Below are positions 6,453 to 63,983 of a stretch of 64,000 nt of DNA, piece after piece. Position numbers and translations under genes: made by a program. Within the stretch, counting starts at the first letter, position 1, and every line of letters starts with the position of its first letter. Below the pieces are notes generated by a model, which was not told where the DNA came from, did no database searches, and saw nothing but the letters and a program-made list of their open reading frames with translations. The stretch is from an uncultured Bdellovibrionales bacterium (GTDB taxonomy: Bacteria; Bdellovibrionota_C; UBA2361; SZUA-149; CAZDWZ01): positions 35,429-99,428 of the forward strand of contig CAZDWZ010000011.1 of assembly GCA_964509425.1 (NCBI GenBank), in the 5' to 3' direction.

Positions 6453-7787
6453 TCAGATCAGCGCCGCGATCGGTTTCCCGCCGTCCACGAGGTACTGCGG
6501 GCGGCCGCCGCTGTCGCGGAACTGCGTGTCCACCGGGATGCCCATCGCGTAGAGCACGGTCGCGACCAGATCGCTCGGCGTCACGGGGTTTAACTTCGGG
6601 TACTCAGCCTTGGCGCTCGACTCACCGACTACGACACCGCCTTGCAGACCACCGCCGGCCACCATCAGCGAGCTGAGCTGCGGCCAGTGGTCACGTCCGG
6701 CGGTGCCGTTGATCCGCGGCGTGCGGCCAAACTCGCCGGTGACGATCACCATCGTCTCCTCGAGCAGTCCGCGCTGATCGAGGTCGTCGATGAGCGCCGC
6801 CACCGCGCTGTCGAGCTGCGGCCCGAGCTGCTTGAACCCGTCCACCAGTCCGCCGTGCATGTCCCAGCCCCCGAAGTGGAGGGACACGTACTTCGCGCCG
6901 CCCTCGATCAGCCGGCGCGACAACACGAGCTGGTCGCCGATCGTCGTCCGGCCGTAGCGGTCGCGAAGCCGCGGATCCTCGGCCGACAGGTTGAACACGT
7001 TCCCGACATCTCGAGTCAGCGCGCCGAACGCCTGATCGGCGAATCCGTCCATGGCCGCCGCGACGCCGGTCTGGTCCACCTCCTTTCGCATGCTGTCGAA
7101 CGACGTGAGCAGCGTGCGGCGATCGCTCAGCCTCGGAACCGTCACGTTCAGTCGGAGGTTGGCCCGAGCTTCCCCTCGCCCGTTGAACGCTCCGAAGTTC
7201 GCGCCGAGCCACGCCGGACCTCCGGCGTAGATGTCGTCCTGCGCGACGTAGGTGGGAACCCCGCTCGGCGAGCTGGCCCCGTAGTAGCGCGAGATCATCG
7301 AGCCGATCGACGGCCAGATCGGCGGCAGGTTGTTGTCGGCCTGAGCGTGGTTACGCCCGGTCATGAGCCAGTGCGTCCCTCCACTGTGACCCGAGTTGCC
7401 GTGGGTCAGCGAGCGGACGACGGCGAGCTTCGGCATGATCCGGGCGAGCTTGGTGAACGACTTCCCCAGAGTGATCCCCGGAACCGACGTCGGTGTTTCC
7501 CCCGTCATGCTCCGGAACTCCGCGGGCGCGGTCATCTTCGGATCCCACGTCTCGACGTGGCTGGGCCCGCCGCCCAGCCAGATGGTGATGACCCCCTTCG
7601 CTTTGCCGAACGTGGTGCTGCGGTTGCCCGGCGAGTCCGCCGGAGGTGCCGCACGTGTGGTTTGCCCGAACCAGTCGGGCAGGCCGAGACCGAGGATGCC
7701 TGTCGAGCCGAACGCGAGGAAGTTTCGTCGCGTCGAGCCGTCGCAGGTCCTTCCGCCGGTTCTCGCCGGAAGTAGGAACGTGAACAT
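6453..7787 (-). CDS. DUF1501 family protein (sulfatase-like fold) with twin-arginine signal
   Basis: TRRNFLAFGSTGILGLGL TAT-type signal. Motifs WLGGGPSHVETWDPK and TGEFGRTPRINGTAGRDHW are characteristic of DUF1501. Start set at the internal ATG (MFTFLL). The gene is ~63% GC. Confidence 0.8.
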   Translation of the reverse strand: MFTFLLPARTGGRTCDGSTRRNFLAFGSTGILGLGLPDWFGQTTRAAPPADSPGNRSTTFGKAKGVITIWLGGGPSHVETWDPKMTAPAEFRSMTGETPTSVPGITLGKSFTKLARIMPKLAVVRSLTHGNSGHSGGTHWLMTGRNHAQADNNLPPIWPSIGSMISRYYGASSPSGVPTYVAQDDIYAGGPAWLGANFGAFNGRGEARANLRLNVTVPRLSDRRTLLTSFDSMRKEVDQTGVAAAMDGFADQAFGALTRDVGNVFNLSAEDPRLRDRYGRTTIGDQLVLSRRLIEGGAKYVSLHFGGWDMHGGLVDGFKQLGPQLDSAVAALIDDLDQRGLLEETMVIVTGEFGRTPRINGTAGRDHWPQLSSLMVAGGGLQGGVVVGESSAKAEYPKLNPVTPSDLVATVLYAMGIPVDTQFRDSGGRPQYLVDGGKPIAALI

Positions 7788-8117
7788 GGTACGGTTGCCC
7801 TCGTAGGGTGATGATTGGAATTCCTTTCCGATCCTTCTGCCTCCTTGTGAACACCACGCGAGACGCAAGCGGTCTTCACAAGAGCTGCAGAGCATTTCGT
7901 CTTTTCGTTTGAGGCGTAAAAAAGAGCGAGAACGGCCGGCTGGGCCGGTCGCATCAAAGTCTATGCGATCTTGGGAGCGAAAGTCTTGGAGTTTTTTTGT
8001 TGGAAGTAAGAATATGGAACGAGATAAAACTTCAGAGGCCTCGGCCCGAAGCATTCGTGTTTCCGCTTCCAATCTGAATTTCACCCGCAATCAAGATGAA
8101 AGCGGCTCCGTGTGGAG

Positions 8118-53787: not shown

Positions 53788-54247
53788 AATCGATTTATCG
53801 GCAGGGGCGCGCTTCGAGTCTCGTGCGCATTCGCACAATTAGGCACTTTTTTCGCGAAACGGCGCAGTTTTATTGAAACCGGCGGATATTTTGACGCAAT
53901 CAACTCATTGCAAATACGCAAATACATCAGTTTCCTCGGCAGAAGGCCGAGGCACGTAAGTATGTGATTCGCAATTGGTCAGAGGCGATTCACGTACCAA
54001 CATCCTTGAGGTTGTCGCATCTTGACGATTCTTCGGCACTCTCAAAGCTTCGTCGGAAGCCAGAAAACTTCAATTGCTCGTTACACAAAATTGCAGAGCG
54101 ATTGTTTAGCGAGTGCAAAACGGTTGCTCAGCAGATCGCGATTCGAAATTGAATTGATCAGAGTTTGCGATCAACTTTCTTGTGTGTCACGCGGACGAGT
54201 CTCCGCGTCATATTTCCTTGAGAACTGCAATTTCATCGAGGGCACAG

Positions 54248-57094
54248 ATGACAATCACATCAAATCAGAGTGGTGCTGGCATCCAACAAACATCATCGGA
54301 CGATGGTCGAGATGTTTTGCTTTTCCCGTCTCTGGGTCGAGAGTTACTCAACCAGCTCGAGAATACGAAATTTGTGATGACGCTTCCGGAGCCGCTGGAG
54401 GATGGACCTCGAGGCGATGAGCCGAAGCGAGACGAGCCACGGCGTGATGAACCGAAGAAGGACGAACCGAGGCGTGGAGACGTTCGACAATTTCTCGAGA
54501 GAATGGCACGCGATCCATTGTCGATGATCGAGGATGTTCTAAAAAACGGTCCTCAGAAAGCGGCGACGCTGCTGTTCGACACTCTCTCAGTGAAATCGCC
54601 GGAAACAGCGGCGCTTGTTTTTCGCTCGTTGCCTCCGCTCACTGGTACGTCGGCCGGTGATGCGATGATCGTGCTCGCTTGCGTGCGACATCCGGACGTC
54701 GCGAAGCGTTTCATCGACAGCATTCCTCCGGGCGCCGCCACGGGGTTGGGAGATGCCGAGCTTCTCGCCTACATCAAGGCGCACGTAGAGATAGCACCGG
54801 CGATGCAGATTCTTCTTGACGATAAGTTTTCGGGCGGAAAAGGCAAACTCACCGACAAGGAGCGGGATATCATCGCGAAGTCGATGTCTTCGGCTTCCCA
54901 GGAAGCGGCGATGTTCCTTGCTGAGCGCGTTCTTGAGCGAGCGCCCCTTGAAGCGGGAGTGCTCCTCCGAAATCCAGAGGCGCTGAGCGGACATGCACGC
55001 GGGGCTTCGATCTTCGCGAATGTCGCTCGATATGCACCCGAAGCAGTCACTGCGGAAGTTTTGAAGCCGCTTACGGCGGAGTTGAGGAACGCTGTTCTCG
55101 AGATTCGTGACGCGACGCTGTTCCTGAAGAAACTCGACCCGCGGCTTGTCGTGGGAGGTGACGCCTTGCCGATGGACGAAGTCGCGCGAGGGAAGGTCCG
55201 GGACCTTGTACTCAAGGCCGATGTGTCGAAGCTGCCGGATGCCGTACTTCACCGAAGCGTGCAAATGTTGGGGAAAATTGCGCCTGACATCGCGGCAGAG
55301 TTGGGATTCCGAAACGCGAGCCGATTCAAGAGCCCGGATGCGATGGCCGTGCTCGCGGAGCTGACGATTTATAATCCAGAAGGGGCGCTCGACAAAGCAA
55401 AAGAATTTCTCAAGCAAAAGCACATGTTGGGAAAGATCGTGGTTGCCGAGGCAATGTTCTATTTCGCGCTCATGAACCCTGAAGCTGCGACACGGCGGTG
55501 CGACGATCTTATTGCCGGCCCGCTTGCGGACGATAAGCGCACGGGAGATCGGTTGAGACAGAACGTGGGACTTGCAAAGGCATTCCGCCTGACGTTGGGA
55601 AACGATAAATTAGAAGATCCGGTAAAGACGAGAGCGATGATCGAAGGAGTAGAAAAACTCGGACCTACGGTACGAAATGAATTTCTGAGCATCTTTGGTC
55701 CGTTGGCTCCGCACATCCTGATTGAAAATCCCTCGCTTCTTAAAATTCCGGAAATGCTCAGAATCGCCGCAGAGTTCGCCGCGAAGGATCCGGCTTTTGT
55801 CATCAGCCGATTTGCTGAGCATAAAAACGAGCAGCTTCTCCGCACCGCAGCATTCGCGCTCGGAGCCGAAAAATCCTTCGGCCCTGAAGCTCCGCTTGAA
55901 GAAGTGCCGCGAGAGATCGCCGCATTTAAGCTCGATGACAAGGCGAGGGCTCTCGCGGTCGAAAGTTTCAAGGCAGGGCTCGCCGCCGGAAAGGACATTT
56001 ATTTGCTTCGAGGAACCCCGCCGCCAAAAGACGGAACTCCGGGGATGCTCATCGCCGAGCCGGCAATCCGGCGTGTTGCAGAGATTAAAGCCGCCGATCT
56101 TCTTTTCCCCGCCACGAATGGGAAGCTCGTGCCGTTTGAGAAATTATCCGATGCCGAGCGTGCCTCTTGGACCCCCCGCGCCATTTTAGAATTGAAGATG
56201 GCTGTTTCGAGAAACTTGCCGGAAGGCACGACGAAGGTCACCGCGGACCTGGTACAGGCGGGATGCAAAACTCTTTTTGAAGCTGCCGGGAAATACGATT
56301 CGATTGCCGTGGCAAAAGGGAGAGACGTGTACGTTCTTGCGAACAGCGATAATTGGCGGGAAAATTTGAAGGGTCTAAACATGCCGCCATGGGTGAGCTT
56401 CTGGGCCGAAAAATCTCTTGGTGAGCCGAACGCCTTTGCCGGAAAGGAACTGATGAAGTCGTTAAAGGCTCAAGAAGCGCGCTCGGTGTCTCGGTTCTCT
56501 CCTGCGGTTACCGATCTGAGTCCATCAGTGGCGAAGAACAATTTTCTCGCGACGTTTGAGACAGCGAAAATCAAATCGACATTCATCTTCGCCGGTCATG
56601 GCTCTCCGACCGGGCTTGCGTCGACGGGAGGAGACGTAGTGAACGGGCTCCCGACAAAGGGTGAAGCGGAGATTGCTCCAGGTGAGCTCGCGGAAGTTCT
56701 CATACGACGTGCCGAAGCATTGAAGGCGGGCAAGGTGTCTGTTGAGGATCGGGATCTGGTGATCCTCGATAGCTGCTTTTCGCAGGACTACATGCGCGCG
56801 GTGTTCTCAAGAATCAGCGAGAAATGCACCGATCCTGAAGTGCTCGCCCGGTTGCCCATCTTTGCCGTTGCTTCCGAGCACGGTCATTTATCATACGGGA
56901 GGGCGACAAAGGATCGGGATTCGTTCGTCGGATATATGTTCCGGGGCACCGGAACGACGACGCTAAAAGATCTCAGATTCTTAATTCTCCCGACTTCGAA
57001 CCCCGGTCTTTTCTTTCTCGAACCCGGAAAGTCAGGAGAGGTCCCGCGAATGTTTCAGTTGGGAAGCGATGTGCGGCCGAGGAACTATGCGTAA
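54248..57094 (+). CDS. large alpha-helical repeat protein with C-terminal caspase-like (clan CD) His/Cys dyad domain
   Basis: GAGGG RBS before the internal ATG. N-terminal KRDEPRRDEPKKDEPRR low-complexity tract. ~700 aa of ARM/HEAT-like helices. C-terminal STFIFAGHGSP ... 58 aa ... LVILDSCFSQ matches the hydrophobic-strand-HG / hydrophobic-strand-(D/A/S)C pattern of peptidase clan CD (caspase/CHAT/gingipain). Confidence 0.55.
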   Translation: MTITSNQSGAGIQQTSSDDGRDVLLFPSLGRELLNQLENTKFVMTLPEPLEDGPRGDEPKRDEPRRDEPKKDEPRRGDVRQFLERMARDPLSMIEDVLKNGPQKAATLLFDTLSVKSPETAALVFRSLPPLTGTSAGDAMIVLACVRHPDVAKRFIDSIPPGAATGLGDAELLAYIKAHVEIAPAMQILLDDKFSGGKGKLTDKERDIIAKSMSSASQEAAMFLAERVLERAPLEAGVLLRNPEALSGHARGASIFANVARYAPEAVTAEVLKPLTAELRNAVLEIRDATLFLKKLDPRLVVGGDALPMDEVARGKVRDLVLKADVSKLPDAVLHRSVQMLGKIAPDIAAELGFRNASRFKSPDAMAVLAELTIYNPEGALDKAKEFLKQKHMLGKIVVAEAMFYFALMNPEAATRRCDDLIAGPLADDKRTGDRLRQNVGLAKAFRLTLGNDKLEDPVKTRAMIEGVEKLGPTVRNEFLSIFGPLAPHILIENPSLLKIPEMLRIAAEFAAKDPAFVISRFAEHKNEQLLRTAAFALGAEKSFGPEAPLEEVPREIAAFKLDDKARALAVESFKAGLAAGKDIYLLRGTPPPKDGTPGMLIAEPAIRRVAEIKAADLLFPATNGKLVPFEKLSDAERASWTPRAILELKMAVSRNLPEGTTKVTADLVQAGCKTLFEAAGKYDSIAVAKGRDVYVLANSDNWRENLKGLNMPPWVSFWAEKSLGEPNAFAGKELMKSLKAQEARSVSRFSPAVTDLSPSVAKNNFLATFETAKIKSTFIFAGHGSPTGLASTGGDVVNGLPTKGEAEIAPGELAEVLIRRAEALKAGKVSVEDRDLVILDSCFSQDYMRAVFSRISEKCTDPEVLARLPIFAVASEHGHLSYGRATKDRDSFVGYMFRGTGTTTLKDLRFLILPTSNPGLFFLEPGKSGEVPRMFQLGSDVRPRNYA

Positions 57095-57197
57095 ATCTTC
57101 GCGGGAATGATCCTCCCCGGGATTTTACACCGAGAAGTAGGGGCGTTTCATTTCCGCGTGCGAGCGGCGCACGCGGATGGGTGCTAATCGGGCTGCA

Positions 57198-57325
57198 TAC
57201 GAAGCCTTAAAGCACCTGTACGAACTCGCGAGGAGAACTCCTGCGCGACTCTACGAGTGCTTAAGGCACTTGTATTTTGAAGCCGCCGGGGTCTGCGAAG
57301 CCTTAAAGCACTTGTATATTGTCTG
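57198..57325. repeat. three imperfect ~45-bp tandem repeats with core G(A/T)GCCTTAA(A/G)GCAC(C/T)TGTA
   Basis: gaagccttaaagcacctgta / gagtgcttaaggcacttgta / gaagccttaaagcacttgta. Each contains a near-palindromic CTTAAG core. Lies in the convergent intergenic region between the 970-aa gene and the PEP-hydrolase-like gene. Confidence 0.6.
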
Positions 57326-57698: not shown

Positions 57699-58535
57699 TC
57701 ATACCTTCAGCTCGCGCCGGATCGCCCTGAACTTCTTCACCTGTTCGGTGAGGGCGATCTCGCAAGGCAATCGTTCGATCGAACTTGCGCCGTAGAACCC
57801 GCCGACGATCGGGACGCGGTCAAGGACGTACTTCGCGTCGTCCGGCATCGAGATGACGCCGCCGTGGCAGAGGACGATGACGTCCCCTCGCTCCTCCCGC
57901 GCTGCCTCGGCGATCGCCCGCACTTGGGCGACGGCCCCGTCGAGCGTCACACGAGCCTCCGCACCGATGCTCCCTCCGGTGGTGAGTCCGAGGTGGGCCA
58001 CGATCACGTCGGCCCCCGCCCGCGTCATGCGTTTTGCCTCGCTGGCGTTAAACGCATACGGACTCGTGAACATGTCGGCCTCGTGCGCGGCCGCGATCCA
58101 GTCCACCTCCTTGTCGTACCCGAAACCGGTCTTCTCGAGATCGACACGGAAGTTCCCGTCAATCAACCCCACCGTCGGATAGTTCTGGATGCCGCTGTAC
58201 CCGAGCGCCTTTAGCCTCGGGATGAAGGTGTGCGGTGGATAGCGCGGGTCGACCCCGTGCACGCCCGCGAGAACCGGGGTCTTCGGCGCGGCGGTGATGA
58301 TCTCCGCAGCCATCTCGAGGACGAGCGCGTTCGCATCGCAGAATGACAACATCCCGGCTAAACTCCCGAGCCCCGCCATGCGGAAGCGGCCGGAGTTGTA
58401 GACGATCAGCAGGTCGATCCCGCCCACCTCGGCGAACTTCGCGCTCAGGCCGATGCCTGCGCCGCCGCCGATGATCGGCTCGTCGCGTTCGATCTTCGCC
58501 CGGAGACGGGCGAGGATGTCGGTCCGCTTGAACAT
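57699..58535 (-). CDS. phosphoenolpyruvate-hydrolase-like TIM-barrel protein (PF09370-like)
   Basis: Full-length similarity by eye to the 'TIM-barrel signal transduction / PEP hydrolase' family: IIGGGAGIGLSAKFAEVGGIDLLIVYNSGRFRMAG...GVHG...ADVIVAHLGLTTGG. Start at the internal ATG. Confidence 0.6.
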   Translation of the reverse strand: MFKRTDILARLRAKIERDEPIIGGGAGIGLSAKFAEVGGIDLLIVYNSGRFRMAGLGSLAGMLSFCDANALVLEMAAEIITAAPKTPVLAGVHGVDPRYPPHTFIPRLKALGYSGIQNYPTVGLIDGNFRVDLEKTGFGYDKEVDWIAAAHEADMFTSPYAFNASEAKRMTRAGADVIVAHLGLTTGGSIGAEARVTLDGAVAQVRAIAEAAREERGDVIVLCHGGVISMPDDAKYVLDRVPIVGGFYGASSIERLPCEIALTEQVKKFRAIRRELKV

Positions 58536-59134
58536 GTCGACTCCTGGAACTGGGTAATGGTTTGCCGGCCGGCTGGCGGGCAGGCGCTCCGAAAGGCGTT
58601 CGGAAGACACCTCTAAAAACGCGAGACGCATTCTTAGAGATGTCTTCGAAATACCAAGGAACGAGACGAAGCAGAAATCGTGTCGATAGAACCTGAAAAA
58701 AGATGTGCTCTCGTATCGAAAATAGAAATGAGAGTAGAGATTCTTCCCCTATGCGAAGCTGTATTGATGAAAGGGACGCTGAATACTATGCCTCCGTGCG
58801 GAAACACAAATCGACCTTGAGAATTTTCGATTTCTTTAAATGCGTTTGATACTCGCGGTGAACATCTGTGAGCAAATTGTATTCAACATCATGACTTAGC
58901 AATACGGAGGGACAGCGACGAACTTCGAGAACGGAGTTCACTGCAGATCACCGGCGCACGCGTGGAGGAGCGCAGACCTGTAATGATCGGATTCCACTCG
59001 GTGAATCCCCTAGAATATGCTCTTTGAGAGCTCCGAATTCGCAAACTCCGGAAAGATTATTGACCTATGCGGGTCCAACTCCGCTAATAAACGAAGCGGC
59101 TTAGGAAATCGGCCGTCATTCGTCGCGGAGCCTC

Positions 59135-59686
59135 ATGTTTAGACTTTTCAATCTATTTTCGATTCCGGTCTATTTCCACTGGTCGACCGCACTCGTTTTC
59201 TTGATATTGCTGCCGCTCAAGATGGCGGTGGGTTACGTCGCGGTGCTTCTGCTCATTCTGATTCATGAAATGGGACACTACATCGCGGCGCGTCGAAACG
59301 GTCTCGTCGGGACTGCAATCGAAATCTATCCGTTCTACGGCCTTTTCCATTGCGATGAGATCACGAGCCGAAGAGCAGGCCTCTGGCTCTACTTTGGCGG
59401 CGTCATCGCGCAGCTTATTGTGTTCGCGATTGCGCTTGTGATCGGAATTTACAGCTCCGACTTTCTGAGAACCGCGCCCAAATACATCGATGCGATCTTT
59501 AACGTTTTCGTCCCAATCAATCTGTTGATGGTGTTCACGAATCTGTTGCCCATCGAACCGCTTGACGGCTGGTTTATTCGAGGGCTGCTGCGGAGAGAGC
59601 CGTTGCCTGAGCGACAACCCCCACGGCCGCTGAAGCCGAAAGAACGTCAACTTCGCGTTGTCTCGCGCGATGATCACCTTCATTGA
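59135..59686 (+). CDS. membrane zinc metalloprotease, site-2-protease (M50)-like
   Basis: HEMGHYIAAR HExxH motif inside a TM helix. Four to five TM helices. Size and topology like small M50B/SpoIVFB-type proteins. Confidence 0.55.
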   Translation: MFRLFNLFSIPVYFHWSTALVFLILLPLKMAVGYVAVLLLILIHEMGHYIAARRNGLVGTAIEIYPFYGLFHCDEITSRRAGLWLYFGGVIAQLIVFAIALVIGIYSSDFLRTAPKYIDAIFNVFVPINLLMVFTNLLPIEPLDGWFIRGLLRREPLPERQPPRPLKPKERQLRVVSRDDHLH

Positions 59687-59747
59687 GTTGGATTCGGTTC
59701 GCAGAAATTCCATGCTGCACGGGCGCACAGGGACCAAGCGCTAAGAA

Positions 59748-60090
59748 GCGAACCGAAGCCGCATAGCTCGAACCATCAGCAGACGCCGAAGGAAGAGTGC
59801 GTATGCGGCTAAGGCAAGCTCACCGGGTGTTCTTGTCACCCCGGGAGCTCAGGTGGTTACGTTCCTTCCATGACCATGCGGCCGGGGGGCGAGTTGCCTC
59901 CGCCACCGCCGCTGTGCACTCTGCCATGGCCGCCTTGGTCGCGGCTCATGAGAGATCGGAAGGACCAAACCACCACCGCAGAAAAGAGACGCACAGTTTG
60001 CATCGCTTTTCCTCCTACGCAGCTCTTCAGAACTTACGGTCTCCGGAGTTGTACCGGCACCAGGGAGCGAAGAGGCCCGCTCAGATCGCG
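59748..60090. repeat. copy A of a ~340-bp duplicated element (direct repeat of 62679-63030)
   Basis: Shares long identical blocks with copy B: gcgaaccgaagccgcatagctc, gcgtatgcg, ccggg..cccgg, gaccaaaccac.a..cgcagaaaagagacgca.agtttgcatcgct.ttcctcctacgcagctcttc. Roughly 75-85% identity by eye. Confidence 0.7.
59857..60003 (-). CDS. conserved mini-ORF (48 aa) inside repeat copy A
   Basis: Minus-strand AGGAGGaaaagcgATG (perfect SD, 7-nt spacing). MQTVRLFSAVVVWSFRSLMSRDQGGHGRVHSGGGGGNSPPGRMVMEGT. The N-terminal 16 aa are nearly identical to the mini-ORF in copy B. Coordinates +/-2. Confidence 0.4.
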   Translation of the reverse strand: MQTVRLFSAVVVWSFRSLMSRDQGGHGRVHSGGGGGNSPPGRMVMEGT

Positions 60091-60319
60091 ACGAGCTATT
60101 CCTCGGTTTCGACCTCAGCGCTGATCTTCGCTGAACAATAGAACTATACGACTTTGGTTCTCGCAGTTTATCATTGTTGTCTTCGAGTTTCATCGGCAGT
60201 TCTGCGAATCACCCGCGAAAACTGCGCCGATTCTCACTTTGCGCGATTGCAATCCAGTTGCATTTCGCGGCAATATTTCACGCCAGACCGGCTCTACGTT
60301 TCTTCGAGGAATTTTCAGG

Positions 60320-60766
60320 ATGTCATTTTTCATCGGTAACGAAATCAACTCAGCGATCAAATCACTTTCACTTGAATCCGAGGCGGCTCGCTTACCGGAA
60401 ACACAAGCCGAAACGGTAAGGAATGACATTCAATCAAAGTTCGTGAACGGAAACGGATTGTGGTGGGAACATTTCGTGGAGCCGACGGCATCCGTTTGGT
60501 TTAAAGCAGGCGACGCGTATCAGAGTCTTACGCGTTTTGTGCCGAAGCCGGATGAAAACTGCTGGCTGCTTTTCGAATCGCCTGATGCTGCCGGGCTTGT
60601 AATCTACGAGCTGACTCCGAGTACGGCTGTCAAAATTTTGGGCGAATGCGCAGGCTGTGAATATTATCTCGTCTCGAAAGATCTTGACTGGCTGATCTGC
60701 GAGAACGACCATGATGTGCTTATCGGGAGCGGCGAACCGGTGGTTCGGGCCATGTCCGCAAAATAA
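60320..60766 (+). CDS. hypothetical cytoplasmic protein
   Basis: Internal ATG of a 175-aa ORF. No recognised domain. Confidence 0.4.
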   Translation: MSFFIGNEINSAIKSLSLESEAARLPETQAETVRNDIQSKFVNGNGLWWEHFVEPTASVWFKAGDAYQSLTRFVPKPDENCWLLFESPDAAGLVIYELTPSTAVKILGECAGCEYYLVSKDLDWLICENDHDVLIGSGEPVVRAMSAK

Positions 60767-60845
60767 GCGACGGGTAAGAGGATGGCTCGAACCCGTGCTG
60801 CCGCGCTGGTGACTGATCACCCGCGCGGCAAGTTGCCTCTCTCGA

Positions 60846-61499
60846 TCACGCGTCCGTCACGGTGAACTCGAACCAGCCGTCCACGCACGCCATCGTGACC
60901 GCGAGCTGGTGGCCGGTTTCCATCGCGATCGCCGCCTTCTCGCCGTTCACGCTCAGTCGGAAGTTCGCCTTGTTCGCGTTCCCGGTCATGATGACGCGGA
61001 CCTTGCCGGCGACACCGTCGATCGCGATCGTCTTCGCGCCGAACCCGCCGTTCTCCGTGCGGTCGTAGTACTCGAACTTCTCCACGCGGGCGTTCACCTC
61101 GAGCGTGACGATCCCGCCGACCGACCCGGTGCGGGCCGTGCCGAAGCGGATCGCCCAGTCGGACGGGCCGGCCGCGTCGGGGTTCCCGACCACCGCGTTC
61201 ACGTTCACGACGGTGGACGCGCCGGAGAACAGGAACTGGACGGGGATCTCGATCGCCCCGTAGACGGGGGCGAGGCACCGGCTGCTGCCCGCGAAGTGCG
61301 ACTGGAGCACCACGCGGGTGTCGCCGAGCTTGAAGTTGGCCGGGAGTCCCGAGTGGGTGAAGTTACCCATCACGGGGGTCGCCGGCCGGAGGACGTCGTC
61401 GAACATGGGATCTGTACCAGCAGGAACTAAGGGAAGGGCCTGTACCGCTCGCATCGCCGAAAAGTCGGCGATCCAAGCGGTAAAGAGCCCGAAAACCAA
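60846..61499 (-). CDS. hypothetical beta-rich protein in a ~66% GC island
   Basis: Best frame in a high-GC block. Gly/Val/Asn/Thr-rich, suggesting a beta-sandwich. Start uncertain. Confidence 0.4.
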   Translation of the reverse strand: MVFGLFTAWIADFSAMRAVQALPLVPAGTDPMFDDVLRPATPVMGNFTHSGLPANFKLGDTRVVLQSHFAGSSRCLAPVYGAIEIPVQFLFSGASTVVNVNAVVGNPDAAGPSDWAIRFGTARTGSVGGIVTLEVNARVEKFEYYDRTENGGFGAKTIAIDGVAGKVRVIMTGNANKANFRLSVNGEKAAIAMETGHQLAVTMACVDGWFEFTVTDA

Positions 61500-61707
61500 T
61501 AAGCCATCCTCATCTACCCACCCCTTTCCCGAACGACGGAAACGGATGGATTTCTCAAGGGTCGACTACTCGGTGGGTGCCTCGAAGCGGAGACAGCGCT
61601 GTCAAAGATGGGGGCACTTTGTTTATGCGATCTTAGACGAAGGAGAAGTGGGTGATGCAAAAATGCAAGACTGTTGAAACAATTCTGACTCTGGTCTGTT
61701 ATCGACT

Positions 61708-62502
61708 CTACAAACTGGCGAGCGAATTCGCGAATTCTGCGACTCGAGCCCGATCGACGGCGTTATCGGCTTTCCCGTCTTTCTTGATGTAACTCCCCAC
61801 GATGAAGCCATTCACCTTATCCGCCACGCGATGAATGTTTGCCGGAGTTGCGCCGCTGCCGATGAGGATCGGGAGCGTCGTTGTTCCGCGGACGATATCG
61901 ACTTCCGCGGCGTCAGTTTCTGCTCCGGTTATCTCACCAGAGACGATGATAACGTCGGCGAGACCGCGTTCGGCGAGATCGCGAGTCTCCGCTTTTAGTC
62001 CACGGCCTCCGAGTGGTGCCGCGTGTTTCACTCCCACGTCGGCGAAAAGAAGCGCCTTGGATTTCAGCGCTGCCCTCAGTCGCAGCGTGAGGTGACTTTT
62101 TCCTTGGATGATTCCCTGTTCAGAGATTACTGCACCCATGTGAACGTTCACTCGAACGAATTGTGCGCTCACCGCGGTGGCTATCGCGATCGCCGCCTCT
62201 CCGTCGTTCCGCAGTGCGTTAATGCCGACTGGAACTCCCGCGGATTTGACGACTTCCCTTCCGATGCCAGCGAGAGCGGCAATTGTCTCCGCGGGGAGGC
62301 GGTCGGGATAAAATGGTTTGTCATGGAAATTTTCGACGATCACTCCGTCAATTTTTGCAGTTTTGAAGCTCTCGAGCTCTTCGAGAGCTTTGTCGTAGAT
62401 CGCGCTCATCGAGCCCCCATACCCCGGCGATCCCGGTAGCGGGAGGAGATGAATGCACGGGATAAAGGTCTTCTTTGCAGAAAAAAGATCTTCGTACTTC
62501 AT
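61708..62502 (-). CDS. BtpA/SgcQ family TIM-barrel protein
   Basis: FIPCIHLLPLPGSPGYGGSM matches the BtpA N-terminal IHxxPLPGSPxY motif. Full-length fit: GINALRND, VRVNVH, LIGSGATPANI. Start at the internal ATG (MKYEDLF). Confidence 0.75.
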   Translation of the reverse strand: MKYEDLFSAKKTFIPCIHLLPLPGSPGYGGSMSAIYDKALEELESFKTAKIDGVIVENFHDKPFYPDRLPAETIAALAGIGREVVKSAGVPVGINALRNDGEAAIAIATAVSAQFVRVNVHMGAVISEQGIIQGKSHLTLRLRAALKSKALLFADVGVKHAAPLGGRGLKAETRDLAERGLADVIIVSGEITGAETDAAEVDIVRGTTTLPILIGSGATPANIHRVADKVNGFIVGSYIKKDGKADNAVDRARVAEFANSLASL

Positions 62503-62678
62503 GACGGCTCCCTTGCGTATTTGGCTTTCGTTCACCTCATACCTGATTTCTCAAGGTACGTCAGAATTGCCCTGCCCCTCGGATCGCATTGGTTCGAACG
62601 GGAAATCGGAATCGGACCCTCAGACCGGCTTGGATGTGGTGAATACTAATTAAAATTATAGAAGAGAAAACACGCTCA

Positions 62679-63030
62679 GCGAACCGAAGCCGCATAGCTC
62701 AAATCCTCTCAGCAAGAGCCAAAAGAAGAGGAGCGTATGCGACTTAGGTGAGCATGGACCGGGATTTACATCACTCCCGGAAGCTCATTGTGTGGTCAAC
62801 TTCCGCCTCCGGCCGGGGTCACGTCCGGCAAACTGCCGACGCCCCCAGTTTCCCTTTTTCGGCGGCCATGGCCGTAGTCGAGGAAGGATTGGAATGACCA
62901 AACCACAATCGCAGAAAAGAGACGCAGAGTTTGCATCGCTCTTCCTCCTACGCAGCTCTTCGAAACTTGCGGCGGTCCGGAACGTACCGGGGCCAGGGTG
63001 CGAAGAGGCGCGTTCAGACCGCCGGAGAGT
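62679..63030. repeat. copy B of the ~340-bp duplicated element
   Basis: See copy A. Lies immediately upstream (on the minus strand) of the BtpA-family gene. Confidence 0.7.
62796..62936 (-). CDS. conserved mini-ORF (46 aa) inside repeat copy B
   Basis: Minus-strand AGGAGGaagagcgATG. MQTLRLFSAIVVWSFQSFLDYGHGRRKRETGGVGSLPDVTPAGGGS. This is the C-terminal 46 codons of the 62796..63113 track ORF. The upstream part of that ORF is not conserved in copy A. Confidence 0.4.
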   Translation of the reverse strand: MQTLRLFSAIVVWSFQSFLDYGHGRRKRETGGVGSLPDVTPAGGGS

Positions 63031-63350
63031 ATTCGCTCGCCGAACGATCTCAGCGCAATTCTTCGCAACAAAACGCAATTGCTATGCGGTATCGGGCGGG
63101 CGGAAGCTAACATAAGTCACAGGCGGAAACATGGACGTTTGGGGCCGCCGAGCTTGCAAGAAGATTTCATTTCGCGAAAGAGGAACTTTGGAAGGCCAAG
63201 GTGGCTCAAATTTGCGTCTATCGACAGCCCTCTCGCAAGGATTCCCAAACTGCGCTCCCCGAAAACATTTCGGGAGAGGAGAGGATCGCCGGGGTCGCTG
63301 TTTTATGGCGACTTCCCGGCGTTCCGCTCCGAGGTGACGACTGAGCAGGC

Positions 63351-63983
63351 TCAGACCGCGCGAACGACTTGTTGTGCGACGATCATTGTGAAGCTGCCGA
63401 TGAAGCAGGTGATCGTTGCGCTCAGCATGGCGTAGATGCTCAGCTCGCGATGACCCCTTCCGTCGAGCTGAATCATCAGGTGTTCGCTTTCGCTCAGCAA
63501 GGACACGCACCGCCCCGCGCAGATAAACGCTGCGCAGAGCACCATCAGCCATGCGAAGAGATGAAGCATTGACGGGAGAGCGAACTCACTGTTCCAGTCG
63601 CTCTGAAAACCGAGAACCGCGCACGACGACAGACCGAGCAGGAGATTCAAGCCGAGGAAGAAGCTGGACTTCACTTGACGTTTCACAGCCCGCGAGTAGG
63701 CGAGGCACCACACTCCGAAAAGGACACAGGCGACAGGTACGCCGATGTCCGGATCCGCAGAGTAGAGGCCTTGCTGTGCGGCCACGGTGATGCCGAAGCC
63801 GAGGTTTAACGTGGCGAAGCCGTAGCTCGGGATGAACGATTCGGCGGCGGGCTTCGGGTTGTTGGGGGTTGTGATTCTCCCGAGGGCGACGCCGAAGACG
63901 CCCATGAAGATGACGGCCGTGAGGACGGTCCACAGCGCGAACGTCCAGTTGAACGTACCCGCACGCGCCGAGGCGACCGCCAT
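63351..63983 (-). CDS. hypothetical polytopic membrane protein
   Basis: Six TM helices. Confidence 0.45.
   Translation of the reverse strand: MAVASARAGTFNWTFALWTVLTAVIFMGVFGVALGRITTPNNPKPAAESFIPSYGFATLNLGFGITVAAQQGLYSADPDIGVPVACVLFGVWCLAYSRAVKRQVKSSFFLGLNLLLGLSSCAVLGFQSDWNSEFALPSMLHLFAWLMVLCAAFICAGRCVSLLSESEHLMIQLDGRGHRELSIYAMLSATITCFIGSFTMIVAQQVVRAV

Follow-up and report, generated by a model that had tools for sequence, protein, structure and literature searches.

We analysed a stretch of 64,000 nucleotides (nt) from an uncultured Bdellovibrionales bacterium (GenBank assembly GCA_964509425.1, contig CAZDWZ010000011.1, positions 35,429 to 99,428), referred to below as the window, which contains two direct copies (A and B) of an element on the minus strand. 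The copies flank three genes, coding for a DUF6756 protein, a protein without recognised family and a BtpA protein, and each copy carries a short open reading frame (ORF), the mini-ORF, behind a Shine-Dalgarno (SD) sequence. The repeat, with its long identical blocks, was already noticed in a preliminary description of the sequence, and it was borne out far above chance by blastn, nhmmer, covariance models and exact k-mers. Blastn aligned the copies at 71% identity over 416 columns (E 2.6e-40; other estimates of the identity were about 67–71%). An nhmmer model built from the pair had no match in the 64-kb window outside the two copies, in agreement with two covariance models (R1 and R2), and both the 20-mer GAAGAGCTGCGTAGGAGGAA around the SD sequence and the 23-mer GAGCTATGCGGCTTCGGTTCGCT at the 3' end occur twice in the window where ~0 occurrences are expected. 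The limits first given for the copies were too narrow, as the homology reaches ~50 nt further in the 5' direction, to 60138 in copy A and 63071 in copy B; this extra sequence takes in the whole of a long 5' hairpin (H1). The homologous unit is about 390 nt in size; with the 5' box described below it would be about 415 nt. The coordinates of all parts are listed in Table 1.

The identity between the copies is distributed as a mosaic. Perfect runs of 20, 13, 17, 11 and 22 columns, a core of 65 nt with 4 mismatches and a perfect block of 22–23 nt at the 3' end adjoin stretches of low identity, in which windows of 15 columns contain only 3–6 identities and several indels. By permutation, this heterogeneity was significant both in a variance test (P<0.0002) and in a longest-run test (P=0.013). 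The flanks outside H1 and outside the 3' block, on the other side, are no more similar to each other than shuffled sequence. Since the flanks are unrelated, neutral sites must be saturated, and the blocks that were retained must then be under selection. Taken together this indicates an ancient duplication, of which the conserved blocks have probably been held by selection. A recent segmental duplication with unrelated flanks, offered in the preliminary description as an alternative, is ruled out by this combination of saturation and mosaic conservation: the flanks are indeed unrelated, but the divergence is old and mosaic. The same combination argues against passive terminal repeats.

Aligning and folding the copies, a check proposed earlier, revealed an unusually stable minus-strand fold in each. 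Compared with dinucleotide shuffles, copy A (-182.5 kcal/mol) had a z score of -4.5 and copy B (-177.7 kcal/mol) one of -3.8, versus -2.7 and -2.5, respectively, for the plus strand. The RNAalifold consensus of the minus strand reached -115 kcal/mol, compared to -75.8 +/- 5.8 kcal/mol for column-shuffled alignments (z -6.9); the consensus of the reverse complement was -97.7 kcal/mol (z -3.8). When the minimum free energy (MFE) structure of copy A was imposed on copy B, 36 pairs were broken whereas 55 were expected (0/2000 permutations), and 41% of the changed pairs stayed canonical, versus 32% expected (P=0.02). Several conserved blocks are mutually complementary (GCGAAGA/UCUUCGC, GUGGUU/RACCAC, UUCC/GGAA, CCGGG/CCCGG and GCCGCAUA/UAUGCGGC), and nearly all of the conserved blocks form one half of a predicted minus-strand helix of which the partner half is conserved too. 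The palindromes ccgcata/tatgcgg and CCGGG/CCCGG, which had been pointed out before, make up two hairpins at the 3' side. In view of these results we consider it likely that the copies are a pair of selected, structured RNA genes on the minus strand. The more general idea, that the element represents a structured RNA and/or a small peptide and not an ordinary protein gene, is supported by the folding, by the pairing of the blocks and by the lack of a codon-position bias described below.

From 5' to 3', the predicted RNA begins with H1, a hairpin of 67–69 nt with a conserved base (GCGAAGA/UCUUCGC) and a conserved GAAUA in the apical loop; in the stem of the apex the copies differ on both sides at 4 pairs. 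H1 is self-complementary and gives an opposite-strand match in the nhmmer and covariance-model scans. It is followed by a small branched region, in which a conserved CCCUGG, a candidate anti-SD sequence, pairs with AGG, the first half of the SD sequence, in the RNAalifold consensus. The final GG of the SD sequence, the spacer, the AUG and codons 1–8 of the mini-ORF are enclosed in hairpin H3 (GGAAAAG/CUUUUCU and GAUGCA/UGCGUC). By computational prediction, both the SD sequence and the AUG take part in base pairs, in the consensus as well as in the folds of the two single copies. The variable domain, which comes next, differs in length between the copies and has a near-random identity in its interior. 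Its closing pairs were found in RNAalifold columns 208–213 with 323–328 and 220–223 with 316–319, and the GUGGUU/(A/G)ACCAC closing helix takes in two bases of the mini-ORF stop codon. Two hairpins, T1 and T2, are located at the 3' side; in the folding model T2 is the probable 3' end or terminator of the RNA.

An invariant block at the 3' end of the element can pair locally, within T2, but it can also pair with a possible 5' box. The duplex of 5' box and 3' block has an energy of -30.1 kcal/mol in copy A and -26.1 kcal/mol in copy B, versus a background of -17.1 +/- 4.3 kcal/mol. The pairing is present in the MFE structure of the extended copy A and not in that of copy B, and is suggestive only of a candidate 5'-3' fold-back of the RNA. 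Separately, the inner stem of H3 and the following UCUUUUCU were flagged as resembling an intrinsic terminator at the start codon (59988-60004 and 62921-62937, minus strand). If this site is functional, it would yield a short RNA of ~150 nt consisting of H1, H2 and H3.

Table 1. Positions of the element, its predicted parts and the genes between the copies (window coordinates)
Feature	Copy	Position	Strand	Remarks
Element	A	59747-60138	-	blastn and nhmmer boundaries; covariance-model matches 59745-59880 and 59925-60140
Element	B	62678-63071	-	blastn and nhmmer boundaries; covariance-model matches 62676-62818 and 62858-63075
Possible 5' box	A	60140-60165	-	19/20 pairs with 3' block, including 3 G-U
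Possible 5' box	B	63080-63105	-	9 + 4 pairs with 3' block; inverted repeat I15
H1, long 5' hairpin	A	60066-60132	-	-34.0 kcal/mol, z -2.4
H1, long 5' hairpin	B	62999-63067	-	-35.6 kcal/mol, z -3.2
CCCUGG, candidate anti-SD	A	60060-60065	-	RNAalifold columns 117-122 with 161-167, predicted
CCCUGG, candidate anti-SD	B	63003-63008	-	RNAalifold, predicted
AGGAGG, SD	A	60011-60016	-	7 nt ahead of AUG
AGGAGG, SD	B	62944-62949	-	7 nt ahead of AUG
H3, hairpin	A	59980-60012	-	~-16 kcal/mol; MFE and centroid structures
H3, hairpin	B	62913-62945	-	predicted folds
Mini-ORF	A	59857-60003	-	48 codons + TAA, MQTVRLFSAVVVWSFRSLMSRDQGGHGRVHSGGGGGNSPPGRMVMEGT; behind AGGAGG-N7-AUG
Mini-ORF	B	62796-62936	-	46 codons + TGA, MQTLRLFSAIVVWSFQSFLDYGHGRRKRETGGVGSLPDVTPAGGGS; behind AGGAGG-N7-AUG
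Variable domain	A	59853-59973	-	GUGGUU 59968-59973 with AACCAC 59853-59858; UUCC/GGAA
Variable domain	B	62792-62906	-	GUGGUU 62901-62906 with GACCAC 62792-62797; centroid structure
T1, first 3' hairpin	A	59816-59850	-	AGCUC-CCGGG ... CCCGG-GAGCU; -20.6 kcal/mol, z -3.8
T1, first 3' hairpin	B	62749-62787	-	-16.8 kcal/mol, z -2.4
T2, long terminal hairpin	A	59752-59815	-	GCCGCAUAC ... UAUGCGGC; -30.1 kcal/mol, z -4.2
T2, long terminal hairpin	B	62683-62749	-	-35.0 kcal/mol, z -5.2
Invariant 23-nt 3' block	A	59747-59769	-	GAGCUAUGCGGCUUCGGUUCGCU; homology stops directly after
Invariant 23-nt 3' block	B	62678-62700	-	homology stops directly after
DUF6756 gene		60320-60766	+	between copies
Unknown high-GC ORF		60846-61406	-	between copies; no Pfam, PADLOC or PHROG match
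BtpA gene		61708-62502	-	between copies

The arrangement of AGGAGG, 7 nt, ATG and an ORF of 46–48 codons is present on the minus strand of both copies, and the N-termini of the two peptides read MQT[V/L]RLFSA[V/I]VVWSF[R/Q]S, both as first described. The hydrophobic N-terminal 17–19 residues are conserved, while the C-terminal part is hypervariable, Gly-rich and basic. The two ORFs end at aligned stop codons and one is 6 nt longer than the other, which is not statistically remarkable in sequence this GC-rich. The duplex of SD and anti-SD (-10.2 kcal/mol) was the strongest among 19 starts sampled, of which approximately half had a recognisable SD sequence. Within the window, AGGAGG-N4-10-ATG followed by a long ORF was found only at the two copies. 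AGGAGG itself occurs 36 times in the window (both strands), so that by a rough estimate ~3 sites would have an ATG at SD-like spacing by chance, and the one other case seen opens an ORF of 6 codons. In codons 1–19 the copies differ only by synonymous or conservative changes, which is weak evidence since NUN codons predominate there. Codons 1–15 are conserved at all three positions, and so is the adjoining 5' untranslated region (UTR), a pattern that fits the constraint from H3 and the closing helix. The spacing of the SD sequence is optimal and, in the predicted folds, SD and AUG are specifically occluded, which is in favour of translation; we put the odds that the mini-ORF is translated at roughly even. 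No gene was called in either copy on an identical Logan contig of 8.7 kb.

The preliminary description also held that long ORFs in other frames were not conserved between the copies. This proved wrong, as the -1 frame is open in both, with Arg/Ser/Pro-rich ORFs of 114 amino acids (aa; 59849-60193, minus strand) and 97 aa (62785-63078, minus strand) which have common stretches (EELRRRKSDAN.ASLFC). A real protein in this frame was considered and rejected: it shows no codon periodicity and was not called by gene finders, and a 2-nt indel in H1 makes its starts non-homologous. The similarity in the -1 frame is best read as nucleotide conservation in GC-rich sequence, and not as a gene, although these ORFs could mislead annotation pipelines.

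Database searches yielded no relatives. Rfam gave no match to the window at gathering thresholds, and at E<=10 only three weak matches were obtained for 59500-63400, none of them within the element and none to a riboswitch; the comparison with Rfam proposed in the preliminary description thus assigns the element to no family. ARAGORN detected no tRNA or tmRNA. Among 5.8 billion proteins no homolog of the mini-ORF peptide was found, nor did a concatenated six-frame translation of both copies match any called protein at E<=10, and a profile of the two peptides gave a single, Gly-rich low-complexity match among 1.84 billion representatives. The peptides and the ORFs in other frames had no match in Pfam (E<=10) or PADLOC. 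Scans with exact seeds, which may miss relatives differing inside the 17–23-nt seed, returned nothing real from the GTDB species representatives (GCGTAGGAGGAANAGCGATG; 8 chance 20-mers) and the JGI metagenomes (GCTATGCGGCTTCGGTTCG; 4 chance 19-mers), and only chance matches from the IMG/VR viral contigs (three seeds), as judged by blastn, nhmmer, reading of the sequence and covariance models. Nothing was found in plasmids and phages by blastn in distant mode, and models R1 and R2 did not detect the element in 23 fetched loci. The best non-self match of BtpA among the 5.8 billion proteins was 74% identical, suggesting that the lineage is poorly sampled.

The neighbours of the element are the genes for BtpA, DUF6756, the high-GC ORF, an M50-like protease, a PEP_hydrolase-like protein and a membrane protein. 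The three bracketed genes correspond to those in the preliminary description. With surroundings of ~48–56% G + C, the ORF at 60846-61406 (minus strand; 67–70%) and the PEP_hydrolase-like gene at 57699-58631 (minus strand; 64–68%) stand out, and from their composition both high-GC genes may have been acquired horizontally. An ancestral duplication of the element together with a TIM-barrel gene was rejected, BtpA and the PEP_hydrolase-like protein being without sequence similarity. A conserved promoter or divergent small RNA (sRNA) upstream of the copies was discarded too, since the upstream similarity is not significant. Template and variable repeats of a diversity-generating retroelement, an integron attC site, a retron, domain V of a group II intron and island att sites were dismissed as their defining partner genes or motifs are lacking.

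Further away, three units of ~30 nt with the near-palindrome GTGCYTTAAGGCAC, 54 and 42 nt apart, are present at 57196-57321 (plus strand), in the intergenic region between an ORF of 970 aa and the PEP_hydrolase-like gene; their sequence is reminiscent of a triple operator of a DNA-binding regulator. The 970-aa ORF (54182-57094, plus strand) belongs to no Pfam, PADLOC or PHROG family and its N-terminal region has a short tandem repeat of (D/R)EPK(K/R)-type units (TRF, 54416-54476). A DUF1501 protein is encoded at 6453-8090 (minus strand; E 4e-81), and many large ORFs of the window are without any family; on this gene content the genome would be of a planctomycete-like or PVC type.

The element is best described as a real, non-trivial orphan, that is a structured small RNA or a small-ORF gene with sequestration of the SD sequence. 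The reading that we prefer, tentatively and with a probability of about 0.4, is that of a pair of independent structured-RNA genes with a translationally gated mini-ORF. The copies would descend from an ancient duplication of one self-contained minus-strand gene, of which the product would be a highly structured RNA of ~0.4 kb, presumably made as an independent transcript. H1 would act as a stabilising or recognition hairpin at the 5' end, the pairing of CCCUGG with AGG and hairpin H3 would lock the ribosome binding site (RBS) and the start codon, the body of the ORF would be a variable hairpin domain, and T1 and T2 would form the 3' end. The invariant 3' block would pair locally (T2) or alternatively with the 5' box. 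In this way the ORF would stay untranslated by structure in cis until processing, refolding or a factor acting in trans opens H3, a principle known from the type I toxin mRNAs hok and aapA1 and from dual-function sRNAs such as RNAIII/hld.

Several results weigh against this reading. Differences between the copies in the mini-ORF frame fall evenly on the codon positions (36/39/35), no third-position bias or codon periodicity was seen in any of the six frames, and in the variable part the local alignment score is 51 for the -1 frame and 34 for the mini-ORF frame. The best 19-residue Kyte-Doolittle mean of the peptides is 1.0–1.1 and their grand averages of hydropathy are -0.27 and -0.15; for type I toxins used as comparators, the 19-residue hydropathy is 1.35–2.5. 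On the RNA side, the stability of H3 by itself does not significantly exceed that of shuffles (z -1.7 and -1.4), and the fold-back lies just ~2–3 standard deviations past the background and competes with the equally stable local hairpin T2. Gene conversion could have added to the identical blocks. Double-sided changes counted by RNAalifold on the two sequences numbered 12, versus 9.5 +/- 2.7 in shuffled alignments, and covariation was therefore rejected as a proof of structure: it is not demonstrable because just two sequences exist, and other, favourable counts are circular, having been made on a structure that itself came from these two sequences. Finally, no sigma-70-like promoter was found on either strand of the element, and no antisense or antitoxin RNA was identified, with no promoter-like site and no conserved upstream sequence for one.

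A purely non-coding structured RNA, acting in trans as an sRNA or having another role, in which AGGAGG, AUG and ORF arose incidentally from purine-rich helix strands in GC-rich sequence, is possible though doubtful. It agrees with the lack of codon periodicity in any frame, with the presence of another frame that is equally open and more similar between the copies, and with an ORF body that coincides with a length-variable, near-randomly diverged hairpin domain. Likewise, gene finders called nothing in the copies on the Logan contig, the peptide is absent from the 5.8 billion predicted proteins, 36 AGGAGG sites leave room for ~3 chance SD-like starts (the rough estimate given above), and the first 15 codons are kept at all positions as H3 and the GUGGUU/ACCAC helix predict. 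However, an incidental origin sits badly with an SD sequence that is optimal in sequence and spacing and the strongest of the 19 starts sampled, with an occlusion of SD and AUG so specific that it looks like translational control, with aligned stops and a length difference that is a multiple of 3 and, weakly given the NUN codons, with conservative or synonymous changes only in the first 19 codons. Another possibility, a pair of ordinary paralogous small-protein genes with an N-terminal signal or anchor, a fast-evolving Gly-rich tail and UTRs kept alike by gene conversion, seems unlikely. A strong RBS, similar ORF lengths, aligned stops, a common hydrophobic N-terminus resembling a signal peptide and two hairpins past the stop codon, as in a terminator region, would all be expected of such genes, but there is no excess of changes at synonymous sites and no codon periodicity, the 5' UTR is conserved as highly as the first codons, and the conserved patches are short (10–23 nt) and pair with each other, whereas gene conversion would give long contiguous tracts. 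Moreover, no homologous peptide occurs in the 1.84 billion representatives or the 5.8 billion proteins, and no motif resembling a signal-peptidase cleavage site could be read from the sequence. A precursor pair of a ribosomally synthesised and post-translationally modified peptide (RiPP) or bacteriocin, is extremely improbable. The conserved N-terminal 17–19 residues could be a leader and the hypervariable Gly-rich part a core, and a small M50-like metalloprotease gene adjoins copy A; yet no maturation, cyclase, dehydratase or transporter genes were recognised among the neighbours, there is neither a coding signature nor a homologous peptide, and typical RiPP leaders are unlike the hydrophobic N-terminus conserved here.

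As a decayed mobile or repetitive element, or as repeats bounding a transposed or duplicated 2.9-kb module without a function of their own, the element would be comparable to miniature inverted-repeat transposable elements (MITEs) and to Correia- and ERIC-type repeats, which are a few hundred bp in size, self-complementary, intergenic, present in more than one copy and have imperfect inverted termini. The size and strong folding of our element are MITE-like, the segment outside H1 repeats the 3' block imperfectly in inverted orientation (16/20 in copy A, 13/15 in copy B), and the copies flank genes of heterogeneous G + C content. Nevertheless this is unlikely, as the 64 kb contain no more than two copies and none was found by seed or BLAST searches in the GTDB representatives, JGI metagenomes, viral contigs, plasmids and phages. 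No target-site duplication can be read from the sequence, the termini are conserved unequally (23/23 at one end, not significant at the other), no transposase, integrase, phage or defence genes are located near the copies, selection on the internal blocks is mosaic, with a divergence that is far from uniform, and an identity of ~67–71% with saturated neutral sites means that the repeats are not recent; in addition, the structure relies on G-U pairs and is asymmetric between the strands. The proposal that the copies are terminal repeats of a mobile or duplicated module thus found no support, given the saturated divergence, the unrelated flanks and the missing duplications and mobility genes. 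That the element regulates btpA in cis, as a riboswitch or leader-peptide attenuator, with copy B functional and copy A a relic, is very unlikely. Copy B was correctly placed upstream of btpA on the same strand, where it ends ~175 nt before the btpA ATG, and the mini-ORF stop codon lies 6–8 nt before T1, so that a terminating ribosome could in principle affect T1/T2. However, the spacer is unconserved. Just past copy B (62655-62683, minus strand), ~145 nt upstream of that ATG, the spacer carries TTCGCT-N17-TATAAT, judged from its sequence a plausible promoter of btpA itself; its -35-like TTCGCT is formed by the final 6 nt of the conserved 3' block, and no counterpart is present behind copy A. 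Copy A, although conserved just as well, is followed by a convergent M50-like gene and has no gene downstream on the same strand. Nine loci of six BtpA relatives (68–74% identity) are without the element according to nhmmer and the covariance models; their upstream gap is mostly ~75–290 nt, with contig L010 holding just 58 nt upstream. These relatives and the position of copy A are the reason for which we do not regard the element as a btpA leader, and neither a riboswitch match in Rfam, even at E<=10, nor a run of conserved regulatory codons was seen.

If the gated mini-ORF is real, the element represents an orphan gene for a structured RNA in which a mini-ORF is occluded, and its two paralogs already mark the blocks that are under selection. 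The bacterium is poorly sampled and, by its gene content, would be planctomycete-like; small RNAs, small proteins and RNA-gated toxins have hardly been charted in that group. Its wider importance is limited for now because no relatives were found, and covariation and phylogenetic breadth are thus not demonstrable. A stronger version, in which the copies are the first two members of a new RNA family, toxin-like or dual-function and gated at the level of translation, with a transcript of ~415 nt, a fold-back that competes with T2 and a small membrane-active peptide, is rather unlikely. As in hok and aapA1, the buried RBS would then become accessible only once the 3' end has been processed or the RNA has refolded, and RNA-gated killing or regulation of the type I kind would extend beyond the Proteobacteria and Firmicutes, the only phyla from which membrane type I toxins are known to date (PMC8309996).

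The determinants of type I toxin mRNAs compiled in T1TAdb are an SD sequence with an anti-SD sequence, 5' stem-loops, 3' terminator stem-loops and long-distance interactions between 5' and 3' end (PMC8594479). The suggestion that the element is type-I-toxin-like agrees with this RNA anatomy, but a convincing transmembrane helix is lacking and no antitoxin RNA was identified. The peptide, with an uninterrupted hydrophobic stretch of only ~10 residues, a lower hydropathy than that of the toxins and an unconstrained tail, does not contain a convincing counterpart of the transmembrane helix of membrane type I toxins (PMC8309996), and no similarity to Hok, Ldr, Fst, TisB or another toxin family was detected in Pfam (E<=10), PADLOC or Rfam. 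In other respects the element resembles hok/Sok of plasmid R1 and aapA1/IsoA1 of Helicobacter pylori. It is a self-contained unit of a few hundred nt with an ORF of less than 60 codons (48 and 46), and it combines a 5' stem-loop with 3' stem-loops. In the predicted folds a strong SD sequence is sequestered (PMC8594479), AGG by pairing with CCU, and GG, spacer and AUG inside the start-codon hairpin H3. A candidate 5'-3' pairing would compete with a local 3' hairpin, and multiple diverged chromosomal copies are also known for type I toxins. Membership of the type I toxin-antitoxin systems is plausible but unproven.

A second group for comparison is formed by dual-function sRNAs that also encode a small peptide, such as Staphylococcus aureus RNAIII with delta-hemolysin (hld), SgrS/SgrT and SR1/SR1P. 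For our element no target-pairing seed was identified, no homologs are at hand to define loops and no Rfam match was obtained, and in these points it differs from them. What it would have in common with these sRNAs is the format of an independently transcribed RNA of 200–500 nt with multiple hairpins and a short ORF in an internal domain; as in these sRNAs, it is the structure, and not the peptide, that dominates the conservation.

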